Of a DNA stretch of 64,000 nt, positions 3,832-21,871 are shown in pieces. The DNA lies in the NCBI GenBank assembly GCA_039931675.1, contig JBDTRM010000266.1:47-64046 (forward strand). Reading direction: 5' to 3'. The number at the start of each line of letters is the position of its first letter. Position 1 is the stretch's first letter. A model generated the notes under the pieces. That model did no database searches. It was not told where the DNA came from and worked only from the letters and a program-made list of their open reading frames with translations. The DNA is from Bacteroidia bacterium. Lineage in GTDB: Bacteria; Bacteroidota; Bacteroidia; AKYH767-A; OLB10. Position numbers and translations under genes: made by a program.

Positions 3832-3888
3832 AAGTGAAATGGTATTTAGTTGTTTGTATATATTTTATCTTGGGAAAATCTAAGCGGA

Positions 3889-4806
3889 TTATTTCCAGGC
3901 TGCAATAGCTTCTTTTTCGAACCCGTATTTCAATAAAAATGAAACATAACTTCTCCGTAAAGCACTATCATTCTCATTTGCTTTTATTAAAGCTGCATAG
4001 CGCTCAGAGGCAGCATTGATAAAAGCATTTTTTTCTAACTTTTCAATTTGCTGCAATTGTATTTCTATATTTTTATTACTGCTATCAGCAATTAGTTGAT
4101 CTAATTGTTGCTTTTCGTCTTCAGGCGTGAGTATGTCAAACCAGATCGGAATTTCATCTTCACATCTTCCATCCTTACTGGTCACATTCCAAAAATATTT
4201 ACCTGTCTTACCTTGCAGTATTTCATTAACAATTACAACCTGAATGGTATCTCTTACATTCATCGTTTTAAGCTCTTTTGCTTTATCATCATAAATAACA
4301 AATGAATAATCTGATGCAGGGCTTGTGTTGTGCCATTTGAAAATAATGGAGGCAGCAGATGTTTTTAAACCGTTTAATGGGAATATCTTGTTGTTGCATT
4401 CATCACCACCGCGAGAAACTCCAGCACGTATCCCTGCTACAAACATTTCAAAATCAGAATTCGGATTGACTAATTCATCAAATAAAAACTTAAAGTATTT
4501 ACCGGTTGTTCCTTCGTTTTTTGTAAACCTTGCTTTAGCATTCACTTCACTAACTTTAAAAACCCCCGGTGTATTCAAAACCCAAAAATTGCCATCTTTA
4601 TCCGATAGCGTAACATCAGTTCCTTTTTTAAGAGTAACTACATCGTTTTTATAAATTAACTGTTTTTGTTTTATAATAACCGGTTTTTTACCGGGTTTTG
4701 TCAAGGTAGCATCACCCATTACCAGATAAACATAATAATCAGGTAACACCTGGGCATAGCTTTGCAAACTAAGTGTTGTGAGTATCAGGATGAATAAGTG
4801 TCTCAT
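3889..4806 (-). CDS. Secreted hypothetical protein, possibly FecR-like beta N-domain with a helical C-terminus
   Basis: 305 aa with signal peptide MRHLFILILTTLSLQSYAQ. It lies between the CHAT and CHASE2 genes with short gaps (57 and 9 nt) on the same strand. The N-terminal segment (GDATLTKPGKKPVIIKQKQLIYKNDVVTLKKGTDVTLSDKDGNFWVL) resembles FecR-type sensors. That functional call is weak. Confidence 0.45.
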   Translation of the reverse strand: MRHLFILILTTLSLQSYAQVLPDYYVYLVMGDATLTKPGKKPVIIKQKQLIYKNDVVTLKKGTDVTLSDKDGNFWVLNTPGVFKVSEVNAKARFTKNEGTTGKYFKFLFDELVNPNSDFEMFVAGIRAGVSRGGDECNNKIFPLNGLKTSAASIIFKWHNTSPASDYSFVIYDDKAKELKTMNVRDTIQVVIVNEILQGKTGKYFWNVTSKDGRCEDEIPIWFDILTPEDEKQQLDQLIADSSNKNIEIQLQQIEKLEKNAFINAASERYAALIKANENDSALRRSYVSFLLKYGFEKEAIAAWK

Positions 4807-4815
4807 GAGTTTTAT

Positions 4816-6033: not shown

Positions 6034-6246
6034 ATATAAATAAAAATGAATACAGCTAATTTAATTTTAGGATGAATTTATTAGTTCTTTTTTCGATTCA
6101 GTAATAACGATAAAATCGATATAACGTTAACTGTAATCCTAACTATTGGGGTTAGTTAAAATAAGATTGAGAGATGGGTAATTGGAATCGGTTTTTAAGG
6201 CCCGAATTCAATTGCCACAACAAGGCGAGGAGCTCCTTTAACTTTT

Positions 6247-6723
6247 TTACAATTCGATTTTGGCAACAAGCTCTTTTTCGTTCAGATACTTTATCACACT
6301 TTCCCAATCGGGAAACTTGTCTGAACCAAAATGAATAAACTCACCTTTAAATTTATCTGAACCATTATGTTTATCACGGTCATCAATCAGGTAATCTCCC
6401 TCATTAAGGTGTTTGTTGTGCGATAAAATTAATCTCTTATAAGCTTCTTTTCCTAAATATTTTTTTACCCATATCAATTTATCATGCCAGGCAGTTGGGT
6501 TCTCCCATGGGGCTGTAGAAAGAATATAAGTATCAAATCTGTCTGCAAGTTTCCTATAGCTTTCAATGGCATCTTCCATAGGTTTCATCAGTGAAAAAAT
6601 ATGAGGTACTTCATCCAGTCGTTCCGCATATTGCTTTTGAATTTCTTCGGATAATTGATTTATCCCTGATTGAAAATCAACCAAGACATTATCCATATCC
6701 ACATAAACTATTTTCTTTTTCAT
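6247..6723 (-). CDS. 5'(3')-deoxyribonucleotidase (NT5C-type, HAD superfamily)
   Basis: 158 aa. HAD motif I DxDxV in MKKKIVYVDMDNVLVDF. The size and the downstream pattern (ILSTAPWENP ... DYLIDDRDKHNG) are typical of the NT5C family. Confidence 0.75.
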   Translation of the reverse strand: MKKKIVYVDMDNVLVDFQSGINQLSEEIQKQYAERLDEVPHIFSLMKPMEDAIESYRKLADRFDTYILSTAPWENPTAWHDKLIWVKKYLGKEAYKRLILSHNKHLNEGDYLIDDRDKHNGSDKFKGEFIHFGSDKFPDWESVIKYLNEKELVAKIEL

Positions 6724-7062: not shown

Positions 7063-9507
7063 TCAATAAGAAATCTTCGCATTTGGCAAAACCAATTTAA
7101 GGTTTTCAATTTGAAGCACTGGAATTTGCGGATTCCCACCTAAATAAATTGTTTTCAGGTTAGGAAGGTTCATCAGTACATCAATATTTTGCAAATTTGT
7201 GCATTGTCTTAAATCCAGAGAATTCAACGCTTTAAGTGCTTTTAATGCATTTATATTTTGTAATTTTAAACATGCCATTAATGATAAAGTAGATAGAGCA
7301 TTGAGTTCTTGCAAATTATCTATATTTTGCAATTCATCGCTATATGCTAAATGCAAATTAGTTAGTTGTTTAAGCCGCTTTAACCCATCAATATTTGACA
7401 ACTTTTTACAGCCTAATAATTCTAAATGATTTAGGTTTATTAATTCATCCAACCCATCTAGACTTTCCAAATGTTCAGCGAAATACAATTCCAAATCAGT
7501 TAGAGATCCTAATCGCCTTAGCGTAGTTAAATCTTTAAGGTTCTCACAATTATATAAAGTTAAATTTGTTAATGAAGTTAGGTTTCTTAAAAAATTGATA
7601 TTTTTAATCTCCCTTTGTTTTATTTGTAATTTTGATAGAAGCGAAAGTTTTTTAATGGGGTCAAAATTTTGGATTTCTCCACAATCTTCTAAGTATAAAC
7701 TACTCAGGTGAGTAAGGTCCTCCAACCCATTTACATTTTTTAAACTTAAACAATAAGTTAAACTTAACTTTTCTAAAGTTGAAAACCCTCTCAAGTCATC
7801 TAAATTAGTGATCCTACTACTATTAGAAATAGAAATGCATTTCAATGACTTTAAAGTATTAATTTTATCAAGCTTACTCATTTGATGAATGGTGTCATAA
7901 TAATCAAAATTAATTTTTAAGGTATCCGGCTGTAAAGCAAAGAAGGAAGGAACTAGACTCTGAAATAAACTGTCAGAAAGAAGTTGGATGTCACTTGAAC
8001 TTATTGTTTTTGTTTGCTCATTCCAAAGCAATCCAGCTCTATTAATTTCTTTAATGGCTTTGGTTTTTTCCCAATTATCAATATTTGTATAATAAGAAGC
8101 GCTGAACAATAAAAGAACACAAATCAAACCAGGTGCGATCCATGGTGTTGTTTTTTGCAACAATGTTTTGCTAATGCCATATACTACTTTTTCTAATTGA
8201 AGGGCAATGAAGTCGTGAGCAATTTGCCATTTTCTATTTCCCTGGGAAATTTCCATTGAATCAAGGCACCGCACTAATCCATGATGTTGCATAATCATCA
8301 TTTGATTATCTAATTGTGAAATGGTCAAACTTGAATTTTTACTCAATTGGCTAATTGTTCTAGGTTTAGCTGTATTGAAGTCCGTGAGCATCCCTTTAAT
8401 TATTGTTGCCCTTTCCATTCTCAATTCTTTACCTAAAGATTGAAGAATGTATTGCTTTATTAAATTTCCCTTCTGTTTTAGAGGATATTCTTTACTAATC
8501 ATCTGCTGTAAAATAATTCCTAAAAGGTTGAGTACTATTGGACGAAGTGTTATAGGAGAATCAATAGAGGCTGCTTCCTTAAGAATACGATTTAACTGAA
8601 GATCAGGTATATCTAATCCTGGACAGCTTTTCAAAAATTTGGATGCCTGTTTAAAAGTAAAAAGTTTTACTTCTTTGAAGTTTATATGTTCAATTCGTGC
8701 CGGTAGGTGAAGTTGATCAATCAGCTGCTGAAAATCATCTCGATATGATAAAAGAATCTGAATTCCTTTAGGTGGATTTTTGATGAAATTGTTGAAAAAA
8801 ATTTCTAACTCTTTTATTTCTTCTATTCCTTTGCTTGGTTTAGATGCTTCAGATTGATTTCTGATTAAGAAAAATTCCTCAAATTGATCGAGCACAATCA
8901 ATATTCTCTCATCAGGAAAAAGCATTTTGCTCGCTTCGTTAATTAAATCGTTTACAGTCTCTGCATTAATTGCTGTTTTGGTATTTTCTTCATTTTTTAA
9001 TTTTTCATACAAAATATTTAAGGGATCATGGTAACTTCGCAAAAAATAAACACGTGTTTTTTGTTGTTTTTGTTTTTCTAACTGTGGTATTAAATATGCT
9101 CTTATTAGTGAGGACTTACCCGCACCGGATGGGCCTGTTAAATAAAGAACAGGGGCTCTGGACTGTCTAAGCCATTCTACATATTGTTCATAACCAGCTA
9201 CGAAAAAATTATACTTATCATCAATCCGTGGGGTAGTTGTAAAATACTGTCCGTCTGGTATGCCAGTTGGCCTAAAATCAAGTTCCTTCTTTGCTTTTAG
9301 GGCAGGTCTTAACGTGAAAAAATAAACTGAAATAATTGCAAAAATTACTACAGTCGTGATAATCCATTTGAGGTAGTATAGGTCTTGAGGTATTTTTGAA
9401 ACATAATAGTATAAGTATAGTATTGCAGCAATAAGCATTGCAAACATTAATATGTATTCCTTCACCAGGTAAAGGAATCCAATATAGATATTCTTATTTT
9501 CTGACAC
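7063..9507 (-). CDS. Membrane-spanning STAND-like P-loop NTPase with C-terminal leucine-rich repeats (paralog A)
   Basis: 814 aa. Two N-terminal TM helices (about aa 17-36 and 45-65) are followed by a basic stretch, RPALKAKKE. Walker A is LYLTGPSGAGKSS (nt 9112-9135). Walker B is ILIVLDQFEEFF (nt 8869-8904). A wHTH-like region reads ISQLDNQMMIMQHHGLVRCL...RKWQIAHDFIA. A third TM sits at aa 454-473 (nt 8089-8148). About 11 cysteine-containing LRRs of 22-23 aa follow (L..L..L..L.L..C..L.NI..L; nt about 7123-7875). Confidence 0.75.
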   Translation of the reverse strand: MSENKNIYIGFLYLVKEYILMFAMLIAAILYLYYYVSKIPQDLYYLKWIITTVVIFAIISVYFFTLRPALKAKKELDFRPTGIPDGQYFTTTPRIDDKYNFFVAGYEQYVEWLRQSRAPVLYLTGPSGAGKSSLIRAYLIPQLEKQKQQKTRVYFLRSYHDPLNILYEKLKNEENTKTAINAETVNDLINEASKMLFPDERILIVLDQFEEFFLIRNQSEASKPSKGIEEIKELEIFFNNFIKNPPKGIQILLSYRDDFQQLIDQLHLPARIEHINFKEVKLFTFKQASKFLKSCPGLDIPDLQLNRILKEAASIDSPITLRPIVLNLLGIILQQMISKEYPLKQKGNLIKQYILQSLGKELRMERATIIKGMLTDFNTAKPRTISQLSKNSSLTISQLDNQMMIMQHHGLVRCLDSMEISQGNRKWQIAHDFIALQLEKVVYGISKTLLQKTTPWIAPGLICVLLLFSASYYTNIDNWEKTKAIKEINRAGLLWNEQTKTISSSDIQLLSDSLFQSLVPSFFALQPDTLKINFDYYDTIHQMSKLDKINTLKSLKCISISNSSRITNLDDLRGFSTLEKLSLTYCLSLKNVNGLEDLTHLSSLYLEDCGEIQNFDPIKKLSLLSKLQIKQREIKNINFLRNLTSLTNLTLYNCENLKDLTTLRRLGSLTDLELYFAEHLESLDGLDELINLNHLELLGCKKLSNIDGLKRLKQLTNLHLAYSDELQNIDNLQELNALSTLSLMACLKLQNINALKALKALNSLDLRQCTNLQNIDVLMNLPNLKTIYLGGNPQIPVLQIENLKLVLPNAKISY

Positions 9508-9771: not shown

Positions 9772-12198
9772 TCAATAAATCAAACCTTTCTTTAGTTTTT
9801 TAATTTGTATTTCAGGCACAGCAGTTCCTATTACAAATACTTCTTTCAAATTAGGAAGCCTCATCAACGCATCAATATTTTCTAAGTTTTTACACATCCC
9901 TAACTCTAAATCTGTTAAGGCTGTAAGTCCTTTTAATCCATCTATATTTTTTAATTGTCCGCAATCATTTAAATCCAAATGAGTCAAAGATTTCATAGCT
10001 TTCAACCCATCTACATTTTGCAACTCATCACATTCGGATAATTGTAAATCAGTTAAATTGATAAGTTCTTTTAACGCATCAACATTTTGTAACTGATCGG
10101 CACCTAAATCCAAACTAGTCAAATTGGTTAGTGCTTTTAATGGTCCAAAATCTTTTAATACCCAACAAGAACTTATTTCCAGATAACTCAAAGTAGTTAA
10201 TTCTTTTATTCCATCTATATTTTCCAATTTGTTGCAATTTCGCAACTCTAAATAAGTCAAAGTGTTGCATTGCTCTAAAGCATTAATATTTATCAAATTA
10301 TAGCAACCTGCTAAAAACAAATATCTCAAAGCTTTCAATCCTTTCAAGGGATCAAAACTTTTCAAATTTTTACAATTATTAATTTTCAAATTAGTTAACG
10401 TAGTTAGAGTTTTTAAGGCTTCAATATTTTGTAGGTTATTAACCTCATCTAAATTTAACCTTGTCAAGGTTGTAAGACCTTTTAAACCATCTAAATTTGA
10501 AATTTTATCATTGTTAGAAACGTAAATGCATTTCAATGATTTTACTTTGTTTAATCCATTAAGATGACTAATTTGGTGGACAGTATCTTCATGTAAGAAA
10601 TTTAATTTTAATGAATCTGGTTGTAATATAAACAAGTCAGAAATGAGACCTTGAAATAAACTATCAGTGAGTAATTGGACATTACTTATGCTTATTGTTT
10701 TTGTTTGCGTATTCCAAAGCAAACCAGCTTTATTAATATTTTCAATTGCTTTTTTCTCTTCCCAATTTTGAATATTTGCATAGTAAGTAGCGCTGAAAAA
10801 TAAAAGAACGCAAATCAGAGCTGGAGCAATCCATGGCGTTAATTTTTGCCAAAATGTCTTTCTGATGCCATGTACTACTTTCTCTAATTGTAAGGCAATG
10901 AAATCATGAGCAATTTGCCATTTTCTATTGCTTTGAGAAGTTTCATTTGGATTAAGGCACCTTACTAATCCATGACGTTGCATAATAATCATTTGATTAT
11001 CAAGTTGAGATATAGTAAGACTAGAGTTTTTGCACAATTCACTTATGCTACTAGGCCTTGCAGTGCTAAAGTCAGTGAGCATGGCTTTAATGATTGATGC
11101 GCGTTCCAACCTTAATTCTTTGCCTAAACATTCCACAATATAACGCTTAATAAGCTTTTCTCCGCGGTTAGGTAAAGATTGATATCCTAGCATTCTTTGC
11201 AAGATAATTCCTAAAAAATTAAGCACAATTGGACGTATTGTTACTGGCGTATCAATGGAGGCGGCCTCCTTCAAAATTCGACTTAATTGTAATTGGGGTA
11301 TCTCTAATCCAGGACATTCCTTAATAAATTTTTCTGCCCATACAAAAGTTAATGGGTTTAATTGCTTAAAATTAATATCTTCAGTTCGTGCCGGCAGTTG
11401 AAGTTGGTCAATCAGCTGTTGAAAATCGCTTCGGTATGATAAAAGAATTTGTATTCCTTCGGGAGGGTTATTAAGAAATCTCTGGAAAAAACTCTCTATT
11501 TCTTTTATTTCCTTTAGCTCTAATCTATTCTCTAAATCTTCCGGATGGTTATGAAGTAAGAAGAATTCTTCAAATTGATCAAGTATAACCAGTATCCGTT
11601 CCCCCGCAGAAAGCATTTTGCTTGCCTGAAGAAATACATTATACACAATTTCTTCCGTAATTAATGGGTTTGTATCATCTCCAATTTGCAATTCTTCATA
11701 TAGAGTTTTTAAGGGATCATGGTAACTTCTTATAGGATAAACATTTGTTAACGGATGCTTAGATTTTTGTAATTGCGGTGAGATGTATGCGTTAATAAGA
11801 GAAGACTTACCAGAACCAGAAGATCCGGTTAAGTATAGAATAGGTTCTTTAGTTTGTTTTAACCATTCTAAGTATTGCTCGTAACCAGAGGCAAAAAAAT
11901 TATATTTATCATCAATACGAGGAGAGGTTGTAAAATACTGTTCATCTGGCTCACCCTTTGGCCTGAGATTAAGCTCTTTCTTTTTTATTAAAGCTGGTCT
12001 CAATGTAAAAAAATAAGCTGAAAAAATGGTAAGAATAACTATCACTGAGACAATCCATTTAAGATAGAATAAATCATCGGGTATTTCTGCTACATAATTG
12101 GACAAGTATAATATTGCTGCAATAAGCATTGCAAAAATTAATATATACTCCTTTAGCTCGGATAGGAATCCAATATAGATATTCTTTTTTTCTGACAT
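9772..12198 (-). CDS. Membrane-spanning STAND-like P-loop NTPase with C-terminal leucine-rich repeats (paralog B)
   Basis: 808 aa and colinear with paralog A. It has the same TM-TM-NTPase-wHTH-TM-LRR order: Walker A LYLTGSSGSGKSS (nt 11803-11826), VILDQFEEFF, and RKWQIAHDFIALQLEKVV identical to A. The LRR part is visibly more diverged than the NTPase part. Confidence 0.75.
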   Translation of the reverse strand: MSEKKNIYIGFLSELKEYILIFAMLIAAILYLSNYVAEIPDDLFYLKWIVSVIVILTIFSAYFFTLRPALIKKKELNLRPKGEPDEQYFTTSPRIDDKYNFFASGYEQYLEWLKQTKEPILYLTGSSGSGKSSLINAYISPQLQKSKHPLTNVYPIRSYHDPLKTLYEELQIGDDTNPLITEEIVYNVFLQASKMLSAGERILVILDQFEEFFLLHNHPEDLENRLELKEIKEIESFFQRFLNNPPEGIQILLSYRSDFQQLIDQLQLPARTEDINFKQLNPLTFVWAEKFIKECPGLEIPQLQLSRILKEAASIDTPVTIRPIVLNFLGIILQRMLGYQSLPNRGEKLIKRYIVECLGKELRLERASIIKAMLTDFSTARPSSISELCKNSSLTISQLDNQMIIMQRHGLVRCLNPNETSQSNRKWQIAHDFIALQLEKVVHGIRKTFWQKLTPWIAPALICVLLFFSATYYANIQNWEEKKAIENINKAGLLWNTQTKTISISNVQLLTDSLFQGLISDLFILQPDSLKLNFLHEDTVHQISHLNGLNKVKSLKCIYVSNNDKISNLDGLKGLTTLTRLNLDEVNNLQNIEALKTLTTLTNLKINNCKNLKSFDPLKGLKALRYLFLAGCYNLININALEQCNTLTYLELRNCNKLENIDGIKELTTLSYLEISSCWVLKDFGPLKALTNLTSLDLGADQLQNVDALKELINLTDLQLSECDELQNVDGLKAMKSLTHLDLNDCGQLKNIDGLKGLTALTDLELGMCKNLENIDALMRLPNLKEVFVIGTAVPEIQIKKLKKGLIY

Positions 12199-12356
12199 GT
12201 GTTATAGTGTCAAATATTCTTTTCAAATTATTCCACAATTTTCTTGTTGTTATTTAGCAATTGAATCTGTTCTTGTAGAATTCAAACTTTTAAAACTATC
12301 TAATGTTCCTGATCTATCTTTTGTGCAGTACAAGATCAAATGAATGTTTTATTTGC

Positions 12357-13835
12357 TTATTTACTGTTCAATGCCGCTACAATTGTTTTAAAATTCAATA
12401 ACCCTGCTTCTAAGTTTTCAATTATTTCCATTGCCAAAATATCAGGGTCTGGTAAATTGTCTAAGTCGGCTAAAGAGCTGTCTTTAAGCCAGGTTATATC
12501 TAATGATGTTTTGTCTCTGGAAATTAATTCATCATAATCGAATTTTCTCCAGCGACCTTCAGTATTTGATACTGACCATGTTTCCTTTCGCTTGTGCCTG
12601 TTTTTAGGATTGTAACAGGCAATGAAATCCTGAAGGCTTTCAGCATTCAAAGGGTTTTTCTTTAGTGTGTGGTGTACGTTAGTTCTGTAATCATATACCC
12701 AAACTTCTTTCGTCCAAACATTTTTACTTGCTGGTTTACTATCGAAGAACAAAACATTTGCTTTAACTCCATTTGCGTAAAAAATTCCAGTTGGTAAACG
12801 AAGTATTGTGTGCAGGTCGGTTTTTTGTAAAAGTGCTTGTCTTACTTTTTCACCAACACCCCCTTCAAATAAAACATTATCAGGTAAAACAACAGCAGCC
12901 TTGCCTGTTGTGTTAAGCATGGACATAATGTGTTGCAGAAAGTTAAGTTGCTTGTTACTTGTAGTCACAATGAAATCCTGGCGATTGTAGATTAAATCAT
13001 CTTTTTCTTCTTCACCATCTTCGTTAGTAATGGTCATGCTACTTTTCTTGCCAAACGGAGGATTAGCTAGCACGTAATCAAAGGTTGTTTTAGGAGTTGA
13101 CAGTAAGGCATCCTCCGGTGAAATGAAACTTTCTTTTGCACTAATATCTCCTATGCCATGCAAGAAAAGATTCATTAGGCAAAGTCTTCTTGTGTTGGCA
13201 ACAATTTCGTTTCCGAAAAAGGTATTTGATTTTAAAAACTCTCTTTCTGATTTATCTAAATCCTGCCTGGCAATAAAATCATAAGAACCTAAGAAGAATC
13301 CACCGGTGCCGCAGGCCGGGTCTCCAATAGTTTTCTTAGGTTCAGGCCTTACACATGCTACCATGGCTGCTATTAATTCTCTTGGTGTGAAGTATTGCCC
13401 TGCACCACTCTTGGTATCTTCAGCATTCTTTTTTAAAATGCCTTCATAAATATCTCCTTTGTCCTTAACTCCCATGCCCACCCAATTTTCAGCGCCAATA
13501 AGTTGGATCAATTTATAGAGTTTGGCAGGGTCTTGAATTTTATTTTGGCTTTTGGTAAATATCTGACCCAGAATCCCTTTTTCTTTTCCAAGTGACCTTA
13601 GAATTTTATTATAATGGCGTTCTAATTCATCACCACTTTTATCAACCAGACTTTCCCAATTTAGTTCTTTAGGTATATTGATGTCTTTACGTTTGTGAGG
13701 TGGTTTTGAATATTCATCTGCCATTTTTAGAAACAGTAAATAGGTTAACTGCTCTAAATAATCTCCATAACTAACGCCATCATCACGAAGGGTGTTACAG
13801 AAATTCCAAATTTTTTGAACTATTGTGCTTGTCAT
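12357..13835 (-). CDS. hsdM: Type I restriction-modification system, N6-adenine DNA methyltransferase subunit M
   Basis: 492 aa. HsdM N-terminal domain (IWNFCNTLRDDGVSYGDYLEQLTYLLFLK). SAM motif DPACGTGGF. Catalytic motif NPPFG (VLANPPFGKK). Confidence 0.9.
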   Translation of the reverse strand: MTSTIVQKIWNFCNTLRDDGVSYGDYLEQLTYLLFLKMADEYSKPPHKRKDINIPKELNWESLVDKSGDELERHYNKILRSLGKEKGILGQIFTKSQNKIQDPAKLYKLIQLIGAENWVGMGVKDKGDIYEGILKKNAEDTKSGAGQYFTPRELIAAMVACVRPEPKKTIGDPACGTGGFFLGSYDFIARQDLDKSEREFLKSNTFFGNEIVANTRRLCLMNLFLHGIGDISAKESFISPEDALLSTPKTTFDYVLANPPFGKKSSMTITNEDGEEEKDDLIYNRQDFIVTTSNKQLNFLQHIMSMLNTTGKAAVVLPDNVLFEGGVGEKVRQALLQKTDLHTILRLPTGIFYANGVKANVLFFDSKPASKNVWTKEVWVYDYRTNVHHTLKKNPLNAESLQDFIACYNPKNRHKRKETWSVSNTEGRWRKFDYDELISRDKTSLDITWLKDSSLADLDNLPDPDILAMEIIENLEAGLLNFKTIVAALNSK

Positions 13836-13840
13836 AAATT

Positions 13841-14776
13841 TTAATTGGAAAGAGAGGGGATCAGATTAGGTAACCATTTGTTGTATATATCTCGCTTTTC
13901 GTGAGAGAAAATACAAGCCCATGCAACTTTTGAAAAAGGCGCGCTCGGAGAAGTCAATTCTTTGAGTCTAATACACGCCTTATTCAGAATTAATCTTTTA
14001 GCTTGTGCGTTTACTGGTTTTATAAGTTGTTTATTATATTCATATAACTCACCTTCGCACAGTCGCCATATTTCGGTTCTTTGATGTTTAAGTTGTTCCA
14101 AGTCTAAATGAAATAACTCTATGGAAATTTCAGCTCTGAATTTATCATCCTCAGGGGCATTACCAAATACAATGGTGGAGCCATCTTTATCAAAAGAAAT
14201 CAAGGTGGTATCGTATAATAGAAGAGGGTCTAGCAATAACGGAACTTCGACATCTAAATTATCGTTTGGTGGCTCTGTGCAATAAGAACCTCCGGTCAAG
14301 TCTAAAGGAAAATAGTCGCCTTTCCCATTAACTTCTTCCCCTTCTGAAAATCTGTCACTTCTTCGCATATTGACTAAGGAACCCACTAACCTATAATTTC
14401 TCCAGTTGTAAGCCAACCACCAGTAACCGTTTGTATTAATAACTTGCCCATTGTATATATTAGATAGTTCGTTGTTTTCCTCGGACACGTTAATATCATT
14501 TAGCTTATATTTATATTGCTTAGATCTATTTTTAGGTCGAAAGTGATCTATAACAAATTCACCAGCACCAATTGGGGCCTCGGAATACCAGCACTTTCTG
14601 TGTGATAAGCTATACATTATATTTTGAAGAATGTTCCAATCTGTATTTGTTCTAATAAACATCTTACGCTCTTCTGTCGTCATTGCTTGCATCTGTAGAA
14701 GATATTCCCGTTCGAGCTGCTTAAATTGTTGAACCTCTTCAGTATTTGCTATTGCTTCTATGTTTATATGTCTCAT
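13841..14776 (-). CDS. HNH-like (beta-beta-alpha-Me) nuclease family protein, PtuB/TIGR02646-like, lacking the Zn-binding cysteines
   Basis: 311 aa. KCWYSE...FVIDHFRPK (His78 codon at 14543-14545) ... YNWRNYRLVGSLVNMRR matches the C.YCE...IDHF.PK...W.NL...C..CN..K layout of ATPase-associated HNH proteins. Its start codon abuts the stop of the upstream ATPase (TAAATG at 14774-14779). Confidence 0.55.
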   Translation of the reverse strand: MRHINIEAIANTEEVQQFKQLEREYLLQMQAMTTEERKMFIRTNTDWNILQNIMYSLSHRKCWYSEAPIGAGEFVIDHFRPKNRSKQYKYKLNDINVSEENNELSNIYNGQVINTNGYWWLAYNWRNYRLVGSLVNMRRSDRFSEGEEVNGKGDYFPLDLTGGSYCTEPPNDNLDVEVPLLLDPLLLYDTTLISFDKDGSTIVFGNAPEDDKFRAEISIELFHLDLEQLKHQRTEIWRLCEGELYEYNKQLIKPVNAQAKRLILNKACIRLKELTSPSAPFSKVAWACIFSHEKRDIYNKWLPNLIPSLSN

Positions 14777-16384
14777 TTATTCGCCTTTTTCTCTCATTAT
14801 TTCATCTGCAACTTCCTTTGAAATTCTTTGAAGTTCCTCCTCCTCTTCTTTTGTAAGAATTGATTTTTGAAATATTTCATGACGACTCGTTAACTCGAGG
14901 TATTGATTATACCTCGAATCAAGTGTTACATCATAAAATCCCACATTTTCTAACTGATCAACAAGTAAATTATATTCTTCTATTTCATCTGGTTTTATTT
15001 TATCTGAATTTAAGATAGTTTGCAAGTATCGCTTACGGTTAAGATTATCTTCAACCTCTTTACTCATGATTGACGGAAGTCCAAATAATTCACTCGTTAA
15101 AATGCCAGAAACACTTCTTGCTTTAGGGTCAATTTCTGGCTGTTCAACTTTTATTTTACCTTCTTTAGTTGTTCGGAAAATTCTCACTTCTTCTTTTTTC
15201 AATCCACCAATTACTAAAGGGTCATGAGTATTTAAAATGATTTGGGTGGATGCGGGTCGTTGAACGACTTTATCCAAAAATTCCAGATAACGCCATTTCC
15301 AAATGGGATTTAAGTGCGTATCAGGCTCGTCTAATAAAATTAATGAATCTTCTTCTTTTGTAAATTTTAATAATCCCAACACCGTTAGGAGTTGTTGCTC
15401 TCCTTCACTCAATTCTTTGAAAGTGATGCTTCCGTCAACATTGGTCTTTTTTACTTTAATGCGAACCTCTGAAATTAATTTTGATATATAAGTACTTTCT
15501 AACGCTTTGAATAAAGCAGTATTACTGGTGTAAGTATTAGCAAGCTCTTTTAATTTATCTTTTCCTTTTAGATAAAGATAAAGTTGATCTTGGGAGTCAT
15601 ACTCATCAAAATCAACTTGAACATCTTTATGGAAATAGATTGGAGCCAATGACAATTTCCATAGTTTATCAAGAAAGGGACGAACTAATCCTTTCGCTGT
15701 CCAAAAGATATCATCCGGGTTATCTTTAATTTTACTCTTAGCCCATCCAGGCATTTTTAATACGAATAAAATTGATTCAATATCTTTTATATTCAAAACT
15801 TCATTTAGAAATTGAATACTTTCCTTTTCTTCATCTTCATGGGTAAAGTATGCCAAAAGCACAAAATATGAATGTACCAATTGAACGTAAAATAGCTTTC
15901 TTAAAGAATCCAATTCTGTTTCTTGAAAATCGTCACTAGTGATTCTTTTATAAAAATTATGTTGATGCTGCCAAAAGTGTTCCTTGAGTTTATTGCTTAA
16001 CCCTGAGTAATAAGTGAAAACGTATTTAGGCTGATATTGTGTTTTATTTGCCTCCGAGAAAAAAGACTTAAAGGTTTTAATTGGTTCACCATTTACTATA
16101 ATATTGTACTCCCTTTTTTTTGTTTTTTTATTTTCTGAAATAGCAACATCTATTTTGTTATCTCCAATACTGTAAATAATATTGTAATCGAATTCGGGGA
16201 GTACTCTTTTATTTTCTGTACTCAAATCAAGATATTTGAAAATCAGAATCAATGCTTCAATGAAATTCGATTTGCCTGTAGCGTTTTGCCCAAGTAAAAC
16301 GGTTTTCATTTCCTTTTCGTCAAGGTCAATGCTAAACTGCTTTAAGTTCTTGTAGTCTTCAATGTAAACCTTATCTATCCTCAT
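14777..16384 (-). CDS. ABC/SMC-like AAA ATPase (AAA_15/AAA_21 type, PtuA-like)
   Basis: 535 aa. Walker A GQNATGKSN (nt 16268-16291). ABC signature-like LSEGEQQ (aa 325-331). Walker B LILLDEPDTHLNP. H-loop LNTHDP. Its start overlaps the hsdS stop as ATGA at 16381-16384. Confidence 0.7.
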   Translation of the reverse strand: MRIDKVYIEDYKNLKQFSIDLDEKEMKTVLLGQNATGKSNFIEALILIFKYLDLSTENKRVLPEFDYNIIYSIGDNKIDVAISENKKTKKREYNIIVNGEPIKTFKSFFSEANKTQYQPKYVFTYYSGLSNKLKEHFWQHQHNFYKRITSDDFQETELDSLRKLFYVQLVHSYFVLLAYFTHEDEEKESIQFLNEVLNIKDIESILFVLKMPGWAKSKIKDNPDDIFWTAKGLVRPFLDKLWKLSLAPIYFHKDVQVDFDEYDSQDQLYLYLKGKDKLKELANTYTSNTALFKALESTYISKLISEVRIKVKKTNVDGSITFKELSEGEQQLLTVLGLLKFTKEEDSLILLDEPDTHLNPIWKWRYLEFLDKVVQRPASTQIILNTHDPLVIGGLKKEEVRIFRTTKEGKIKVEQPEIDPKARSVSGILTSELFGLPSIMSKEVEDNLNRKRYLQTILNSDKIKPDEIEEYNLLVDQLENVGFYDVTLDSRYNQYLELTSRHEIFQKSILTKEEEEELQRISKEVADEIMREKGE

Positions 16385-18156
16385 TTGGGTTCAACAATTT
16401 TTAAACGTGATTCCTTTCCGATTCTTGGTTCCTCTTCCTCAATTTCTCCATTTTCGATAAGTTTTTTCAACTCACTATAAAATGCATCAATATCATTTTT
16501 ATATATTGATGATTCCCATAGTTTTTTAGCTGAAACAGGTTCCTCGCTTTCTTTAATTATTTCTATGATGCGTTTTAATTCTTCTGCCATCTTTCTTGCT
16601 TTTATATGAAGTGGTTTCTCTGTTTTTTTTCTTTCTTTTTCAGCATTTAAATATTCTTCTCTTTCTTTTTTTATTCTTTCAAGCAATGCACTTGCCGGTC
16701 CATCATTGGGGTCCTGCTCAACCAATTTTCCTTGAAAAGCTTTTTGAAGAAGTCCTTGTCTTAAATTTTCAGAGTGTAATATGTTTTGATTTATAGTTTC
16801 TTCCATTTTGTCAGAGTTTGAAAACTTTAGTTCCATATCAATCACAATAAGTTCTTGCTCTTCAATTGAGCAGATTGCAAAAACAAGACTTTCAAATTTC
16901 GATTTATTTAAAATCGGGAGTGTTGTTGCAACTGCGTTAGATATTATCTGGTCTTGAAAGAATTGACCAATTGATTGGAAATAAATGAAATTAGGATTGA
17001 AGATTTCATGAGGAATTATTGCATTTATTTGTTGGTTACTTGCACCTGCAACTCTTATAATGCCAGTTTTCCCTATTGTAGCACCGATTGATGTAACAAG
17101 AATCGAATTTACAGGAAGCAATCTCGCTTGCCTAATTCCACTCTCAGTTAAATATTCTTTTGCATTTCGAACATTGAACCCTTCATTTAACTCAGTTGGT
17201 TTATAAAACGGATATTTGTCACCATAGTATTCAGGTTTTACTTTTGAAGGTGTTGTGCCTGTTTCAATTTCTCCTAATGAAGAAACTTTAACCCATGTCC
17301 AACCTTCGGGTAATAGTGGTAAGCCTCGAATATCGCCATTTGACAACGTTATTATTCCCCTTTGTTCTTTTGGCTTTTCCTTTCTTATTCCAGTTTTGTA
17401 TTCCGTTAGTTGCTTTTCGTATCGCTCTTTTCTATATGCTCTGATTTCATTAACCAAATCATCAGGAGTTTTCAGTTTCTTTTGTTTGCTTCTCCATTCT
17501 TCAGTCAATTTCCCTTCAAAAGCATGCTTCAAAATTGATTGCTTGTAAACCTTCAACTGCTCCGAAGACACTTGTAATTGCTCTTTCCCTTTTTCAAGTT
17601 CGCTCAGTAATTCATCTAATTTCAGTACAATTCGATTTTGTTCGTTTATTGGGGGAACTGGAAACTCAATTAATGATAGGTTACCTCTTGAAATTCTCTT
17701 TCGTGTTGTTCCACTTTGAAGAGCTTCAATTTTGTTTCGAATTAGCGGGCTATTAATAAAGTAGTTTAATAACTTGTTGTTTATACTATCTTCTCCAGTT
17801 CTAATAATAGCAACATCAACAGCCGTTACGAACTTACTTTCACCTTTTAAAGGAAATAAACAAGCTCTTCCAATTGGGTCAGGCATCCTGGCAACTAGAA
17901 TATCTCCTTCAACCAAAAATGTGCAACCAATTTCATTGGCTCTTTTTAACGTCAAAAACCTACTTGACTTATCTCTAAAGCTACCATCCCCTATGTCTGC
18001 AAGTTGAATCAAACGAACTTCCCCGTTCGGGTCTTGGTCTTTGCTTTCTATCCAATCACCATCTACAAAAACTCCATTAGCCGAAATCATTTCGGCAATA
18101 GTTGCTTTTGCCCAACCTTGCGGTAATTCTATATTTAGTAGTATATCTTTATCCAT
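16381..18156 (-). CDS. hsdS: Type I restriction-modification system specificity subunit S, with a roughly 110-aa C-terminal extension
   Basis: 591 aa. Two target-recognition domains are separated by conserved coiled-coil regions (PPINEQNRIVLKLDELLSELEKGKEQL and SIEEQELIVIDMELKFS...LLQKAFQGKLV). The start lies 1 nt after the hsdR stop. Confidence 0.85.
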   Translation of the reverse strand: MDKDILLNIELPQGWAKATIAEMISANGVFVDGDWIESKDQDPNGEVRLIQLADIGDGSFRDKSSRFLTLKRANEIGCTFLVEGDILVARMPDPIGRACLFPLKGESKFVTAVDVAIIRTGEDSINNKLLNYFINSPLIRNKIEALQSGTTRKRISRGNLSLIEFPVPPINEQNRIVLKLDELLSELEKGKEQLQVSSEQLKVYKQSILKHAFEGKLTEEWRSKQKKLKTPDDLVNEIRAYRKERYEKQLTEYKTGIRKEKPKEQRGIITLSNGDIRGLPLLPEGWTWVKVSSLGEIETGTTPSKVKPEYYGDKYPFYKPTELNEGFNVRNAKEYLTESGIRQARLLPVNSILVTSIGATIGKTGIIRVAGASNQQINAIIPHEIFNPNFIYFQSIGQFFQDQIISNAVATTLPILNKSKFESLVFAICSIEEQELIVIDMELKFSNSDKMEETINQNILHSENLRQGLLQKAFQGKLVEQDPNDGPASALLERIKKEREEYLNAEKERKKTEKPLHIKARKMAEELKRIIEIIKESEEPVSAKKLWESSIYKNDIDAFYSELKKLIENGEIEEEEPRIGKESRLKIVEPK

Positions 18157-18157
18157 T

Positions 18158-20932
18158 TTAAGCCGCTAAAGCTTCGTTTAATTCGTTAATAATTTCTTCC
18201 GTTTGTTCCCCAAACAAGTTCCACATTTTGGTTAAGCCACCATTAGCAATAAAGGGGCTAAGATCAAAATCATCCCGATCAATATGAAAGCTATTGGCAA
18301 CATAGTCCTTTATCATCCTCAGCCATTGCATTTGTTCTTCTGTAAATTTTAAGGTTCCTGCTTGTTTTCTAAACACCCAATCCTGAAAGTTTTTATCCAC
18401 TGTTTTATCAAATGCAGTAAGGTTGCTATCAATACCGCTTACTTTTCTGATCAAAGAAACCAAAGCAATCAATTCATTTTTAGCTGAGCCGTTGGTTTGT
18501 CCTAATTGCTCATAAGCCCGCCACACATGTAATGGAGCTAACAAAGGTTTTTCAGTTTTTAATTTTTCATATACATCTTTAATAATTTTATACGTCAATT
18601 CTCTTCTTCGATAGGGCTGACTATAAAAAATTTGCAGGGCTGTGATTTCGTCTTTATGATTTTCAATCCATGCCGTAAAATCCTGTATAAGAGTTAAAGC
18701 TTTATCCGTATTGTCTTTATCCCAACCAACATTTAATAATGTATCAGGATTAATATGGTCAATAATCTGTGAATGAACTTTTCGTACATTTTCAATGTAT
18801 TCATTCAATTCGCCATTAAAGATTGAAGCTGCTTTCTCTTGTAATGCAGTTGATAACTTATTATATTTTTCATCTTTCAATGCAGGTGCCTCGCCTGCAT
18901 ATTCTCTATCAATTTGCAAGCGTATATCCTGTAAGGTATCCGGGTCGTATGCATTCAATAATTCTTTTACTACTTGTGAAATTTGTTTACCGCATGCTTT
19001 CACCTGAAAAACTTCTTTCTCCTTTTCAGTAATTTGCTTTTCAATTCTTGCCAGCCTGCCTGCAAGAGTAGTAAATAAATCTTCGTCCCTAGCTCCAATG
19101 GCAATTGCTGCTAATAAGTCTTTTAGTGGCTCTCCTGGTTTTTTCTCTAATGGCCTGCTATCCGTTTTTAAACTTTTAGTAACACCTATTGCGTCAACAA
19201 TTACAAAATGGTCTTTTGTAAATTTTGCATTTGGAGTTACTTTTTTGAGTGTTTCTAAGTCAATAGTTCGGGTACCACGACCTTTCATTTGTTCAAAATA
19301 ATTACGACTTTTTACATCCCGCATAAATACCAAACATTCCAATGGTTTTACATCTGTTCCTGTTGCAATCATATCAACGGTAACTGCAATTCTAGGCATG
19401 TAGTCATTTCTGAATTGTGCCAGCGTGCCTTTCGGGTCTTCTGTGTTGTAAGTAATTTTTTTGCAGAACCTGTTTTCTTCTGCAAATTCTTCCCTTACAA
19501 TTTGAATGATGTCATCAGCATGGGAATCAGTTTTTGCAAAAATTAAAGTCTTAGGCACTTCAAATACTCCTAGTTCATCAAAACGGTCAGGAAACATTTC
19601 AGAGAAGTGCTCTTTGAAAGTTTTTATTATCAGCCTAATTTGATTTGGGCTGACAACCTCATCATCCAATTTTTTATTGCTGTATATTTTATCTTCATCT
19701 AATTGTTCCCACCGTCTTCTTCTTGTCAGTTTTTCTCGATGATCAACAAATTCACCCTTCCAAAGAGCAGTGCCTTTTTTAGAAATTTCAGTTTCTATCT
19801 GGTAAACATTATATCCTACGTTTACACCATCAGCTACTGCTTGCTCATGGGTATATTCACTCACAACATTTTGATTGAAGAAACCAAAAGTTCTGTTATC
19901 AGGTGTTGCAGTCAATCCGATTAAGAAACTATCAAAATAATCCAACACCTGTTTCCATAGATTGTAAATGCTGCGATGGCATTCATCAATGATTACAAAA
20001 TCAAAAAACTCAATCGGAACTTTTTGATTGTATGCTACAGGAATTGGCTCCCGTTTCTCCCATTTAATTTCTGCTGGATTAGTTTCTTCTGCTTTCTCAT
20101 CTAATTCTTCACCTTTTAAAATAGAATAGAATCTTTGAATGGTGGAAATATAGACTTTGCTGTCAGTAGGTATATAGCTTGCCTTTAACCGGTGAACACC
20201 ATATAATTCTGTAAACTTTCTGTTATCATCGTTCGGAACAAAAGCCATAAATTCCTGCTCGGCTTGCTCACCTAAGTTTTTGGTATCAACTAAAAACAGA
20301 ACTCTTTTTGCTTTAGCGAATTTCAATAAGCGATAAATAAAAGTGATTGCAGTAAAAGTTTTACCCGAACCAGTTGCCATTTGTATCAATGCCTTGGGCC
20401 GATTTTCCTTGAAAGAATTATCAAGGTTACAAATTGCATTAGTTTGGCAATCTCTTAAACCTTCAACATTTAATTGAGGCAAATCAAAGAATCTTGCTCT
20501 TAATGTTTTTTCTTCCTTAATCAACTTTGCAAAAGTCTCAGGCTTATGAAAAGTAAATACATTTCTTGAACGCGGTTTTGGATCCCGATAATCAGTGAAT
20601 CTTGTTACCTCACCAGTACTTTCATAAACGAACGGTAATTTATCATTATTCAAATATTTCAATTTTGCGGATGCATACTCAGTAGATTGGTCCTCAGCTA
20701 TAATTAGCCGAACGCCTTCTTCTTCGCGTTTCGCCTCAATAACTCCAACAGGTTTTTTGTCAACAAATAAAACATAATCAGCCGGTCCAACATCGGTCAA
20801 ATATTCTTTAACAGCGACACCAATACCAGCATTCAAATTTATCGTTTTAGTGCTTTGTATTAGCCACCCACAGGATGACAGTTGCCTGTCAATATTGTCT
20901 CTTGCTATTTGCTCGGGATTTTGGTTGGGCAT
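18158..20932 (-). CDS. hsdR: Type I restriction enzyme R subunit (helicase/nuclease), with EcoEI-type C-terminal tail
   Basis: 924 aa. N-terminal PD-(D/E)xK-like ADYVLFVD...GVIEAKRE. SF2 motif I MATGSGKT. Motif II IIDECHR. C-terminal DFDLSPFIANGGLTKMWNLFG. Confidence 0.9.
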   Translation of the reverse strand: MPNQNPEQIARDNIDRQLSSCGWLIQSTKTINLNAGIGVAVKEYLTDVGPADYVLFVDKKPVGVIEAKREEEGVRLIIAEDQSTEYASAKLKYLNNDKLPFVYESTGEVTRFTDYRDPKPRSRNVFTFHKPETFAKLIKEEKTLRARFFDLPQLNVEGLRDCQTNAICNLDNSFKENRPKALIQMATGSGKTFTAITFIYRLLKFAKAKRVLFLVDTKNLGEQAEQEFMAFVPNDDNRKFTELYGVHRLKASYIPTDSKVYISTIQRFYSILKGEELDEKAEETNPAEIKWEKREPIPVAYNQKVPIEFFDFVIIDECHRSIYNLWKQVLDYFDSFLIGLTATPDNRTFGFFNQNVVSEYTHEQAVADGVNVGYNVYQIETEISKKGTALWKGEFVDHREKLTRRRRWEQLDEDKIYSNKKLDDEVVSPNQIRLIIKTFKEHFSEMFPDRFDELGVFEVPKTLIFAKTDSHADDIIQIVREEFAEENRFCKKITYNTEDPKGTLAQFRNDYMPRIAVTVDMIATGTDVKPLECLVFMRDVKSRNYFEQMKGRGTRTIDLETLKKVTPNAKFTKDHFVIVDAIGVTKSLKTDSRPLEKKPGEPLKDLLAAIAIGARDEDLFTTLAGRLARIEKQITEKEKEVFQVKACGKQISQVVKELLNAYDPDTLQDIRLQIDREYAGEAPALKDEKYNKLSTALQEKAASIFNGELNEYIENVRKVHSQIIDHINPDTLLNVGWDKDNTDKALTLIQDFTAWIENHKDEITALQIFYSQPYRRRELTYKIIKDVYEKLKTEKPLLAPLHVWRAYEQLGQTNGSAKNELIALVSLIRKVSGIDSNLTAFDKTVDKNFQDWVFRKQAGTLKFTEEQMQWLRMIKDYVANSFHIDRDDFDLSPFIANGGLTKMWNLFGEQTEEIINELNEALAA

Positions 20933-21441
20933 TTATTACTTTAAATGTTGAAAGAGTGCTAATGTTTTTAGAGGGGTGAATGTAAAAACAAATTAATATC
21001 AAAAGATAAATGAGGAGATTGAATTTTAATTCCATCAAACAATTGTGATTATTCGAAGAATTGGGTTTCAAACACAGAAGGTCCTTCCAGGAGGACATGG
21101 TGCATTAAAGCGCCAGGAGCTTTTTTATTTCAAGTTCGTGAATAAACAAGTTACGATTTTTTGCCATCTCTTCATAAATTTCAAATTGTACTTCATTCCA
21201 TAGTCAATGATCAATGTTATTAATCCGGGAGGCAATATTATCCGTCACCGCTACAATAATTGAATGCTCTGCTTGTTTTAGTTTTAAAAGAATTTGAGAT
21301 ATTATATTTGTAAAATAGGCTAATGTTTCCAAATTGAGTCTCATATTAATTCAAGCAAGTCTTTAAAATTTATGCGCCTGAAATATTAAATGAATGATGT
21401 CTGCTATTTATTCGTTAATAAATTCTTTATTATGAAGCGCT

Positions 21442-21871
21442 TCATTTTTTCTGAATTAATACACTCCCCGAAGCTAAATCGTGCAATGCTCTTTTTTGGT
21501 TATTCATGTGTATGGTTATGAAAGAAAGCCAGCCAAGCAAAACTTTTACGAAAAAGCGTATGTATGACTGAAATATATTTATTCGTTTAGATTCGTCTTT
21601 ATGTTGTCTCACCTGAATTTTCCTGATGCGGTTGCCTATTGTACCACCTAATGTCATGCAGAGTGGTTCGTACACTCCGAAAAGCCCAATAAATAAAGCA
21701 CCACGTAACCAATCAGGTGCGCTTTCAAAATTATTCAAGAGTGCTGATAAGATGAACATTAGAAACAGTAAATATCAAATCTATAAAAATTGACTGAATT
21801 CTTCTTACCAATGTGGGGTAAATATTTTGCCCAATAGCTAATGTTTCTAATTGCTGTTCTGTAATATCCAT
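21442..21871 (-). pseudogene. RDD-family membrane protein, apparently split by a frameshift
   Basis: The ORF at 21442-21759 ends ...KRALHDLASGSVLIQKK, a typical RDD C-terminus. A separate frame starting at ATG 21871 encodes MDITEQQLETLAIGQNIYPTLVRRIQSIFIDLIFTVS, an RDD-type N-terminus, and stops just inside the other ORF. One indel near 21750-21765 would join them. Confidence 0.5.

Follow-up and report, generated by a model that had tools for sequence, protein, structure and literature searches.

Septu is a common defense system whose trigger is debated, with proposals that include the ATP level, the tail fiber and, in retrons, the loss of multicopy single-stranded DNA (msDNA). Type I restriction-modification (R-M) systems often hold embedded genes (10.1101/2024.01.29.577857), and it is already known that PrrC, DarTG2, Rlo genes and AAA ATPases occur in type I loci and that Septu occurs embedded in Hma (10.1101/2024.01.29.577857, PMC12255303, PMC8565338). 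PrrC is kept latent by EcoprrI and is unleashed by a phage anti-restriction peptide (10.1101/2024.01.29.577857, 10.1101/2023.04.06.535777), and in Ronin a toxic effector comes tied to the M/S core of a type I system (10.1101/2023.04.06.535777). In the retron Ec78/Eco7, the reverse transcriptase (RT) and its msDNA sequester PtuAB, an association for which the adaptation lies in PtuA (PMC12819146); once released, PtuAB becomes toxic as a nuclease that attacks tRNA-Tyr and nicks DNA (PMC12673091, PMC13096335). Here we describe a Septu pair (ptuA, ptuB) inside a type I R-M operon of a Bacteroidia bacterium, in a stretch of 64,000 nucleotides (nt) referred to as the window (contig JBDTRM010000266.1 of assembly GCA_039931675.1, positions 47 to 64,046 of the forward strand). 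We found that the genes of this PtuAB clade lie, almost without exception, immediately downstream of hsdS, that the HsdS in question bears an extra winged helix-turn-helix (wHTH) domain, and that this domain evolves with PtuA, not with HsdM. The operon is one member of a widespread cassette, and its R-M and Septu parts look like one built unit rather than chance neighbors.

ORF calling (open reading frames) on the minus strand of the window yielded five consecutive ORFs between positions 12357 and 20932, all intact, in the order hsdR-hsdS-ptuA-ptuB-hsdM. The first, hsdR (18158-20932, minus), encodes an apparently intact type I restriction subunit of 924 amino acids (aa), which matched Pfam ResIII (1.7e-40), EcoEI_R_C (1.5e-39) and HSDR_N as well as PADLOC REase_I (2.9e-56), and which carries a PD-(D/E)xK-like D..ExK motif (residues 47-68), MATGSGKT and DECH (316-319). 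The specificity subunit encoded by hsdS (16381-18156, minus; 591 aa) has two target recognition domains (TRDs) and a C-terminal extension, and matched Pfam Methylase_S in two stretches and the PADLOC Specificity_I model PDLC03127 (4e-74) over residues 10-576. At the other end of the operon, hsdM (12357-13835, minus; 492 aa) encodes an apparently intact type I N6-adenine methyltransferase with matches to Pfam N6_Mtase (1.3e-69), HsdM_N and PADLOC MTase_I (4.7e-193), an S-adenosylmethionine motif, DPACGTG, at residues 172-178, and NPPF at 258-261 (13053-13064). By Pfam, PADLOC and NCBIfam, then, the type I set is complete, with HsdR helicase and nuclease, HsdM with NPPF, and HsdS with two TRDs. 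The junctions are tight: hsdR and hsdS are separated by 1 nt ('gctTAAaATGgat'), hsdS and ptuA share a 4-nt ATGA stop/start overlap at 16381-16384 (minus; 'cccaaATGAgg'), ptuA abuts ptuB in a TAAATG at 14774-14779 (minus; 'gaaTAAATGaga'), and 5 nt lie between ptuB and hsdM ('aatTAAaatttATGaca'). An earlier note, made from the bare sequence of this DNA, had claimed just these five packed minus-strand genes with just these junctions, and had taken the flanking genes for those of a type I R-M operon; the reading of the junctions, the family matches and the catalytic motifs all bear it out.

That note had also proposed that the inner pair is PtuA/PtuB, and here too the matches agreed. PtuA (14777-16384, minus; 535 aa), predicted to be the ABC-type ATPase of Septu, matched the PADLOC PtuA model PDLC00293 with an E-value of 1.1e-173 and 577 bits, residues 1-534 falling on profile positions 1-525 of 527; its Pfam matches were AAA_21, AAA_15 and SMC_N, and its best matches among PDB sequences were PtuA chains of Septu and retron-Septu. 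All four ATPase motifs could be located on the minus strand, namely Walker A GQNATGKSN (residues 32-40; 16265-16291), the ABC signature LSEGEQQ (325-331; 15392-15412), Walker B LILLDEPD (348-355; 15320-15343) and the H-loop THD (386-388; 15221-15229). PtuB (13841-14776, minus; 311 aa), the putative HNH nuclease, matched the PADLOC PtuB model PDLC00343 over its full length (E 2.8e-62, 209 bits); it had no Pfam match. A profile of the PtuB family searched against PDB matched the PtuB chain 8ee7_C of E. coli Septu (E 0.0066), while a phmmer search of PDB sequences with the HNH core alone gave no match. The AlphaFold2 (AF2) model of PtuB has a mean predicted local distance difference test score (pLDDT) of 70, and its ten best Foldseek matches were all PtuB chains, although weak ones (E 0.04-0.4, probability 0.72-1.0), with lower matches being noise. 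On these full-length matches and motifs we regard it as close to certain that ptuA and ptuB are a genuine and apparently intact Septu pair inside the type I operon.

Other assignments of the pair fared poorly. None of those that the earlier note had named as contrary to Septu (a non-nuclease fold for PtuB; an OLD/Gabija, RloA or AbiL-type family for the ATPase) was found, so that the Septu assignment stands; models of OLD, Gabija and AbiL were absent from the top 25 PADLOC matches of the pair. PARIS was rejected because the AriA/AriAB models gave 66-69 bits compared to 577 for PtuA, no Toprim match was found, and the partner is an HNH protein. PtuA reached 122.4 bits, in two stretches, against a cut-off of 300 for TIGR04435, which is thus a related family only, and the scores for MADS components were far below their cut-offs (MAD3, 48 bits vs. 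420; MAD2, 98 vs. 720; MAD5, 24 vs. 400). A retron type I-A (Septu type II) was rejected since the neighbors of ptuAB are hsdS and hsdM, and no RT domain occurs in the operon or in the flanking genes scanned (no search for a non-coding RNA was made). Ronin was likewise rejected, with an intact hsdR at 18158-20932 and only ptuA and ptuB between hsdS and hsdM. The NCBIfam equivalogs NF041760 (PtuA; 65.8 bits vs. a cut-off of 500) and NF041761 (PtuB; 25.9 vs. 150) are both built on retron Ec78, and since their cut-offs are not reached, the pair does not belong to the retron-type subfamily. TIGR02646 gave PtuB a weak score, below the cut-off.

To place the pair among its relatives, we collected 77 genome loci (numbered with an L below) from a genome-wide scan with a PtuB profile and read them by tblastn with the five proteins of the window and by ORF calling. 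In about 60 of the 77, spread over five or more phyla that include Bacteroidota, Proteobacteria, Desulfobacterota, Firmicutes and Actinomycetota, ptuAB is flanked by hsdS and/or hsdM. The ptuA gene directly follows hsdS in about 55 loci, and directly follows hsdM in the Streptomyces loci. With genes abbreviated to their last letter, the layout is R-S-A-B-(X)-M or S-A-B-(X)-M in Bacteroidota and in a metagenome-assembled genome of Desulfobacula, and (R)-M-S-A-B in Proteobacteria, Firmicutes and some Bacteroidota. Those loci of this clade that have neither hsdS nor hsdM are contigs that break off or very distant matches. The PtuB family as a whole is large, with 415 clusters (at 50% identity) at E <= 1e-30 and 2186 at E <= 1e-10. 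Nor is the tight packing of these genes a local accident, for the junction of hsdS with ptuA is overlapping in 42 of 55 related loci (by 4 nt in 34), and that of ptuA with ptuB shows a 4-nt overlap in 48 of 55. The R-S-A-B-M order thus recurs in many Bacteroidota, with R-M-S-A-B in other phyla. The description of the pair as simply a second defense module set between S and M did not hold up, given a clade that sits almost only directly after an hsdS bearing an extra winged-helix domain.

This domain lies at the C-terminal end of HsdS. In alignments, the HsdS encoded upstream of ptuA has the usual distal helix, followed by a generic 'DPxDEPASxLLERI' helix and a basic linker (residues 481-527; 16576-16716, minus), and then by a conserved domain of about 60 aa, the extra wHTH of PtuAB-linked HsdS (residues 528-589; 16390-16575, minus), in which W547, I556, F559, Y560 and L563 are nearly invariant. 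In the AF2 model this domain has an H-b-H-H-b-b topology with a pLDDT of 74-84, and all top Foldseek matches were winged-helix domains (SSV1 F-93 1tbx, PerR/Fur and MarR). The three other hsdS open frames of the same genome are 401-424 aa long, compared to 594 for the ptuA-linked one. A single-sequence search of 401 genomes of the phylum with the 92-aa tail found only the genome of origin and was too insensitive, and a profile search was used instead. The whole-tail profile found the generic HsdS motif in 64 genomes; in 63 other than that of the window it covered only positions 1-50, which is this generic motif, and it matched at full length only once, in the genome of the window (one of its four HsdS). 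Genome G343 is the only other one of the sample with a PDLC00293-type PtuA; its layout is M-S-A-B, and its 557-aa HsdS ends in a diverged tail that hhalign could still align with this profile (probability 91%, E 1e-6). Conversely, HsdS proteins retrieved by similarity of the tail alone had unrelated TRDs and lengths of 381-594 aa, and in four of four look-ups their genes were followed by an ATPase, a 263-290-aa protein and hsdM. Finally, a hidden Markov model (HMM) of the wHTH alone, run against all ORFs on both strands of all loci, picked out the C terminus of the ORF preceding ptuA in 50 loci, and nothing else. In these samples, the wHTH is thus a dedicated domain of PtuAB-linked HsdS. Our literature search found no account of an HsdS winged-helix tail tied to Septu, nor of a Septu clade obligately linked to hsdS, although such a publication may still exist.

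Pairwise distances over 54 loci were used to ask with which partner each segment of HsdS co-varies; this comparison is descriptive, since the pairs are non-independent and physical linkage contributes, and no P-value is given because the pairs are not phylogenetically independent. The distal helix (rho 0.73 with HsdM; 0.52 with PtuA) and the DPxDEPAS helix (0.67; 0.33) followed HsdM, and the wHTH followed PtuA (0.50; 0.90) and, to a lesser degree, PtuB (0.71). The partial correlation of the HsdS tail with PtuA given HsdM was 0.85, compared to 0.25 for the reverse. As a control for adjacency, PtuB and the abutting N terminus of HsdM gave a rho of only 0.46-0.53. These figures point to a module boundary inside hsdS. 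We infer that wHTH-PtuA-PtuB is a plug-in effector module fused in frame to the HsdS of different type I families, and it is highly probable that the composite cassette is inherited as a unit.

We considered that the pair might instead be an independent Septu, nested in a permissive spot after hsdS, that hitch-hikes for co-transfer and co-expression while sensing phage and acting on its own, the wHTH having an R-M-internal role in DNA binding or autoregulation. Embedding of defense genes is common in type I R-M, BREX, DISARM and Hma, where Septu itself is known from Hma (10.1101/2024.01.29.577857), and DarTG2 lies between hsdS and hsdR in enteropathogenic E. coli (EPEC), at a site proposed as a hot spot (PMC12255303). 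Stand-alone Septu is reported in the literature to work without partners. Moreover, relatives of the present cassette nest further genes between ptuB and hsdM (a 604-aa protein; DUF4062 and SLFN/HATPase genes in L087), and in six sampled genomes the gene after hsdS encodes another ABC ATPase-Toprim protein, its HsdS having no wHTH tail. Against this reading, the wHTH was confined to PtuAB-linked HsdS in all of the samples and co-varies far better with PtuA than with HsdM, a domain of HsdS fused in frame is unexpected for a mere passenger, and the clade is essentially never found away from hsdS or hsdM, save on contigs that break off or in very distant matches. We therefore regard an independent Septu as rather unlikely; because the clade recurs after hsdS, with an HsdS wHTH that co-varies with PtuA, the pair is not a random insert.

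The gene after hsdS in those six genomes deserves a separate mention. In L128 (G030:C5; 6394-8259) and in five other sampled genomes, hsdS is directly followed by a gene for an ATPase of 620-640 aa. The N-terminal half of these proteins comes closest to the PtuA model PDLC00293 (182 bits), the C-terminal half resembles the Toprim of OLD/AriAB, and the HsdS beside them is devoid of a winged-helix tail. They may be a sister lineage of the hsdS-linked ABC ATPases.

What, then, might the wHTH do? The best explanation that we can offer, held tentatively and at somewhat less than even confidence, is a composite type I/Septu system in which PtuAB is docked on the methylase core as a back-up nuclease, by analogy with systems described above. 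In this model, the wHTH would tether the PtuA/PtuB complex to the HsdM2-HsdS1 methyltransferase core, on which PtuAB would be kept inactive; a phage anti-restriction factor that disables or occupies the core would release or activate PtuAB; and the freed PtuAB would act as a back-up nuclease behind classical restriction by HsdR. We propose such a guard because the same logic is seen in PrrC/EcoprrI, in Ronin and in the PtuAB sequestered by retrons. The parts of this model are not equally firm. That PtuAB is physically or functionally coupled to the type I core through the wHTH we infer to be probable; that the trigger is specifically that of a back-up guard is the reading that we favor, by analogy, although at less than even odds.

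An alternative use of the same tether emerged from the distribution of hsdR. This gene lies immediately before hsdS in the window and in its nearest relatives (L001, L007, L008, L015, L023, L038 and L085-L088), but tblastn with eight diverse HsdR queries found no HsdR-like gene, within about 6-10 kb, in about half of the loci with full flanks of +-10 kb, and G343 has M-S-A-B only. The TRDs are reshuffled equally in HsdR-less and HsdR-containing cassettes. Among pairs of HsdR-less cassettes with a PtuA identity above 60%, TRD1 was below 30% identity in 79% and TRD2 in 91%, and there are mosaic pairs such as L022/L025, whose PtuA is 95% identical, TRD1 89% and TRD2 22%. Such reshuffling suggests that DNA specificity is still under selection. 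PtuAB could accordingly serve the HsdM2S1 core as a restriction effector directed by both sequence and methylation. The methyltransferase would then read an unmodified bipartite site and, via the wHTH tether, license the ABC ATPase/HNH complex to nick or cut DNA, so that PtuAB would double HsdR in the window and replace it in the HsdR-less relatives. The intact catalytic motifs of HsdM in the window and the nicking of supercoiled DNA by released PtuAB in vitro (PMC12819146) fit such an effector. However, a compatible hsdR could lie elsewhere in the HsdR-less genomes, TRDs may also be shuffled passively when hsdS recombines with other hsdS genes, and the intact HsdR of the window makes a second restriction nuclease superfluous; furthermore, the reported in vivo target of the PtuAB of E. 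coli Septu and of retron-Eco7 is tRNA-Tyr (PMC13096335, PMC12673091), which an abortive effector fits better. We consider a directed restriction effector distinctly unlikely, and give the same low standing to its corollary, that HsdM2-HsdS1(wHTH)-PtuA-PtuB forms a distinct and widespread R-M-like immunity class in which the methyltransferase core would read sequence and methylation and, by way of the wHTH adaptor, direct the ATPase/HNH machine, with HsdR replaced in about half of the loci or doubled as in the window; were this the case, Septu effectors would be all-purpose nucleases, able to plug into retrons, Hma or type I methylases alike. The back-up nuclease is the most likely role, ahead of a second restriction effector.

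Several points weigh against a docked back-up nuclease. The docking of PtuAB on HsdM2S1 is suggested by sequence co-variation and analogy, and part of that co-variation may come from the physical linkage of the 3' end of hsdS with ptuA; the guard trigger is likewise drawn from analogy. The wHTH could rather bind DNA or serve in autoregulation. The reshuffled TRDs of cassettes with no hsdR nearby fit a sequence-directed nuclease at least as well. In Streptomyces, ptuA adjoins hsdM, not hsdS, and the wHTH HMM had no match in the Streptomyces loci or in those of Firmicutes, although the HsdS tails of the latter look winged-helix-like by eye. Finally, AF2 modeled the HNH core of PtuB poorly, with a pLDDT of 40-60.

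This core merits attention on other grounds as well. PtuB reads KCWYSE (residues 61-66; 14579-14596, minus) and GSLVNMRR (132-139; 14360-14383, minus) in place of the canonical CxYCE and CxxCN, with IDHFRPK (76-82; 14531-14551, minus) and YNWRNYRL (123-130; 14387-14410, minus) between them. The protein thus departs from the canonical CxxC...CxxC zinc knuckles, with one of the four knuckle Cys kept. An alignment of 29 PtuB homologs, mostly from Bacteroidota, revealed that the substitutions are common to all of them, and that K61, C62, W63, Y64, D77, H78, R80, P81, K82, N127, R129, N136, R139 and D141 are invariant. Across 65 PtuB of the hsdS-linked clade, H78, N127, N136, R80, P81 and K82 are invariant in 65/65, and the Cys form a gradient, with all four present in Streptomyces and one alphaproteobacterium (CWYCE...CKHCN), three of four in Firmicutes and one in the Bacteroidota subclade. 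By these alignments, Zn-knuckle depletion is a derived trait of the whole Bacteroidota-centered PtuB subclade; since related PtuB still carry four or three Cys, their loss is gradual and tolerated, and the knuckles were therefore lost stepwise while the catalytic core stayed under continued purifying selection. The PtuB of E. coli Septu (PDB 8EE7) appears to read CCYSE at its first knuckle, in an alignment that is low-scoring (domain score -0.7); because this Ser would occur there too, on so weak an alignment, CxxC knuckles may not strictly define Septu.

The earlier note had described this HNH protein as cysteine-less and possibly inactive. Depletion of the two Zn knuckles is correct, but C62 is kept and invariant, and C240 and C288 are also conserved, so that cysteine-less overstates the case. 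It is unlikely that the nuclease is inactive, since all 65 members of the clade keep the catalytic His and the two Asn, and the loss of Cys is common to the subclade. One could still picture PtuB as a dead or decaying HNH relic, with a pair that is non-functional or purely structural, given that three of four canonical Cys are replaced (CWYSE, GSLVN), that no Pfam HNH model matched, and that AF2 confidence is low in the core. The strong conservation of other positions (14 invariant in the 29 homologs) alongside the shared substitutions, the retention of H78, N127 and N136 throughout, the relatives with full or three-quarter Cys complements, the apparent CCYSE of the studied E. coli Septu (again on a weak alignment), and an intact ORF that overlaps its neighbors together make a relic very improbable.

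We note two further features of PtuB. The retained knuckle Cys, C62, is accompanied by one His and two Cys of the C-terminal helical domain, H223, C240 and C288 (all four within 13913-14593), and these three are highly conserved in the Bacteroidota subclade; the four are candidates for a replacement metal site. Secondly, an insertion of about 20 residues (YKYKLNDINVSEENNELSNIY) lies between DHFRPK and NGYWW, at residues ~89-111 (14444-14512); among the 29 homologs it is common only to the two closest relatives, and AF2 confidence there is below 50.

The packing of the five genes suggests that all five proteins are made from one transcript. A sigma-70 scan of 11900-21600 gave 36 promoter-like sites compared to 33.9 +- 6.4 expected, a terminator scan of the same interval gave seven terminator-like sites compared to 6.0 expected, and a scan for the Bacteroidota-type TTTG-N17-21-TAnnTTTG gave seven matches compared to five expected, none of them on the minus strand of the operon; inside the operon there was thus no promoter-like or terminator-like signal above chance, by consensus scans that are weak for Bacteroidota and uninformative in either direction. 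It is plausible that the expression of hsdM depends on transcription through ptuAB, as the earlier note had supposed, which fits the recurrence of the S-A-B-M order in >30 loci.

Elsewhere, the junction of ptuB with hsdM, which measures 5 nt in the window, is a hot spot for insertions. In many cassettes of Bacteroidota, whether hsdR is present or not, it holds a conserved gene of about 604 aa (L007:10898-12715; likewise L008, L013, L019, L022-L026, L028 and L029), which is absent from the window; its product had no Pfam or PADLOC match, and its sole signal was a faint one to the SfsA RE-domain (E 0.05). In the close relative L087 (11998-14219), the junction holds a duplicated HsdM_N fragment together with DUF4062 and SLFN_AlbA_2/HATPase_c_4 genes. 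In three Flavobacterium-type M-S-A-B loci with no hsdR (L034, L035 and L037), a gene for a 415-aa nuclease of the PLD family (NgoFVII-like) abuts ptuB (L034:10837-12084).

The surroundings of the operon are of interest as well. Directly downstream of hsdM lie two tandem paralogs of about 810 aa (7063-9507 and 9772-12198, minus), each with an nSTAND1 NTPase domain and C-terminal leucine-rich repeats. Beyond them (739-6723, minus) are conflict-type genes, encoding a 1030-aa TPR-CHAT protease-like protein, a CHASE2-domain protein and a lone NT5C-type deoxyribonucleotidase. Together with the R-M/Septu operon, the region from 0.7 to 21 kb looks like a defense island, and its borders are formed by the housekeeping genes tsaD and tamB.

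A Septu branch that is hard-wired to a type I methyltransferase core by a domain of HsdS is a natural test case for the coupling of PtuAB to a sensor, and it carries over to R-M systems what retrons had already shown. Should PtuAB prove to be the restriction arm of HsdR-less cassettes, these would represent a novel architecture of R-M; should it be a guard instead, it would add an HNH/ABC-ATPase device to the anti-anti-restriction devices PrrC, Ronin and PARIS. Annotation pipelines would label such loci 'type I R-M plus Septu' and overlook the link, which is simple to spot from the unusual length of HsdS and its winged-helix tail.

How does the cassette compare with the systems that it most resembles? 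As with the modules embedded in other type I loci (DarTG2 in EPEC, PMC12255303; Rlo genes; TIGR04435), defense genes, often for ABC or AAA ATPases, are nested after hsdS, and TIGR04435, on which PtuA scored 122 bits, is named by NCBIfam a 'restriction system-associated AAA family ATPase'. Unlike here, those modules are not reported with an added HsdS domain, and the HsdS linked to the ATPase-Toprim of L128 has no room for a tail. The resemblance to Ronin (hsdS and hsdM with RonA and no hsdR) lies in an M/S core that comes with an effector, and in the many relatives of the present cassette that have no hsdR nearby; the effector here, however, is PtuAB rather than a 61-aa membrane peptide, and the hsdR of the window is intact. 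With PrrC/EcoprrI, a type Ic R-M locus, it shares a nuclease regulated by an ABC ATPase, inside a type I hsd operon and next to hsdS. PrrC consists of one polypeptide, whose C-terminal domain is an anticodon nuclease, whereas two proteins, one with an HNH core, are found here, and masking by the R-M enzyme is an established model for PrrC/EcoprrI, to which the present case is likened from its genes. We know of no HsdS adaptor domain described for EcoprrI.

Closest in its proteins is Septu type I, the stand-alone PtuA/PtuB, which was reportedly described by Doron and colleagues in 2018; its E. coli structures are PDB 8EE4, 8EE7 and 8EEA. In both cases, a gene for an ABC-type ATPase (Walker A/B, signature, H-loop) is followed by an adjacent one for an HNH protein with a helical C-terminal domain, the PADLOC PtuA and PtuB models match at full length, the PDB sequence and fold matches are to chains of this type, and the PtuB of 8EE7 appears, on its weak alignment, to share the Ser that takes the place of the second Cys in the first knuckle. 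The present clade differs in that it sits directly after hsdS (hsdM in Streptomyces), either within a type I R-M or M-S cassette or as its last genes, and has for a partner an HsdS with a dedicated winged-helix domain. Its PtuB is also longer (~290-311 aa compared to ~205-260 for solved PtuB chains), the PtuB subclade of the window has lost three of four Zn ligands, and the NCBIfam PtuA/PtuB scores stay below cut-off. Retrons of type I-A, or Septu type II (Ec78 = Eco7, Ec83), differ in their partner: theirs is an RT with msDNA, and that of the present pair is the methyltransferase core of a type I system, with its wHTH tail. The operon has no RT gene, and the retron PtuB keeps the canonical CAYCE knuckle. 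Nevertheless, in both the retrons and the present cassette PtuAB lies beside a separate sensing or sequestering module encoded just upstream, and the location of the retron adaptation in PtuA (PMC12819146) parallels the co-variation of the wHTH with PtuA seen here.

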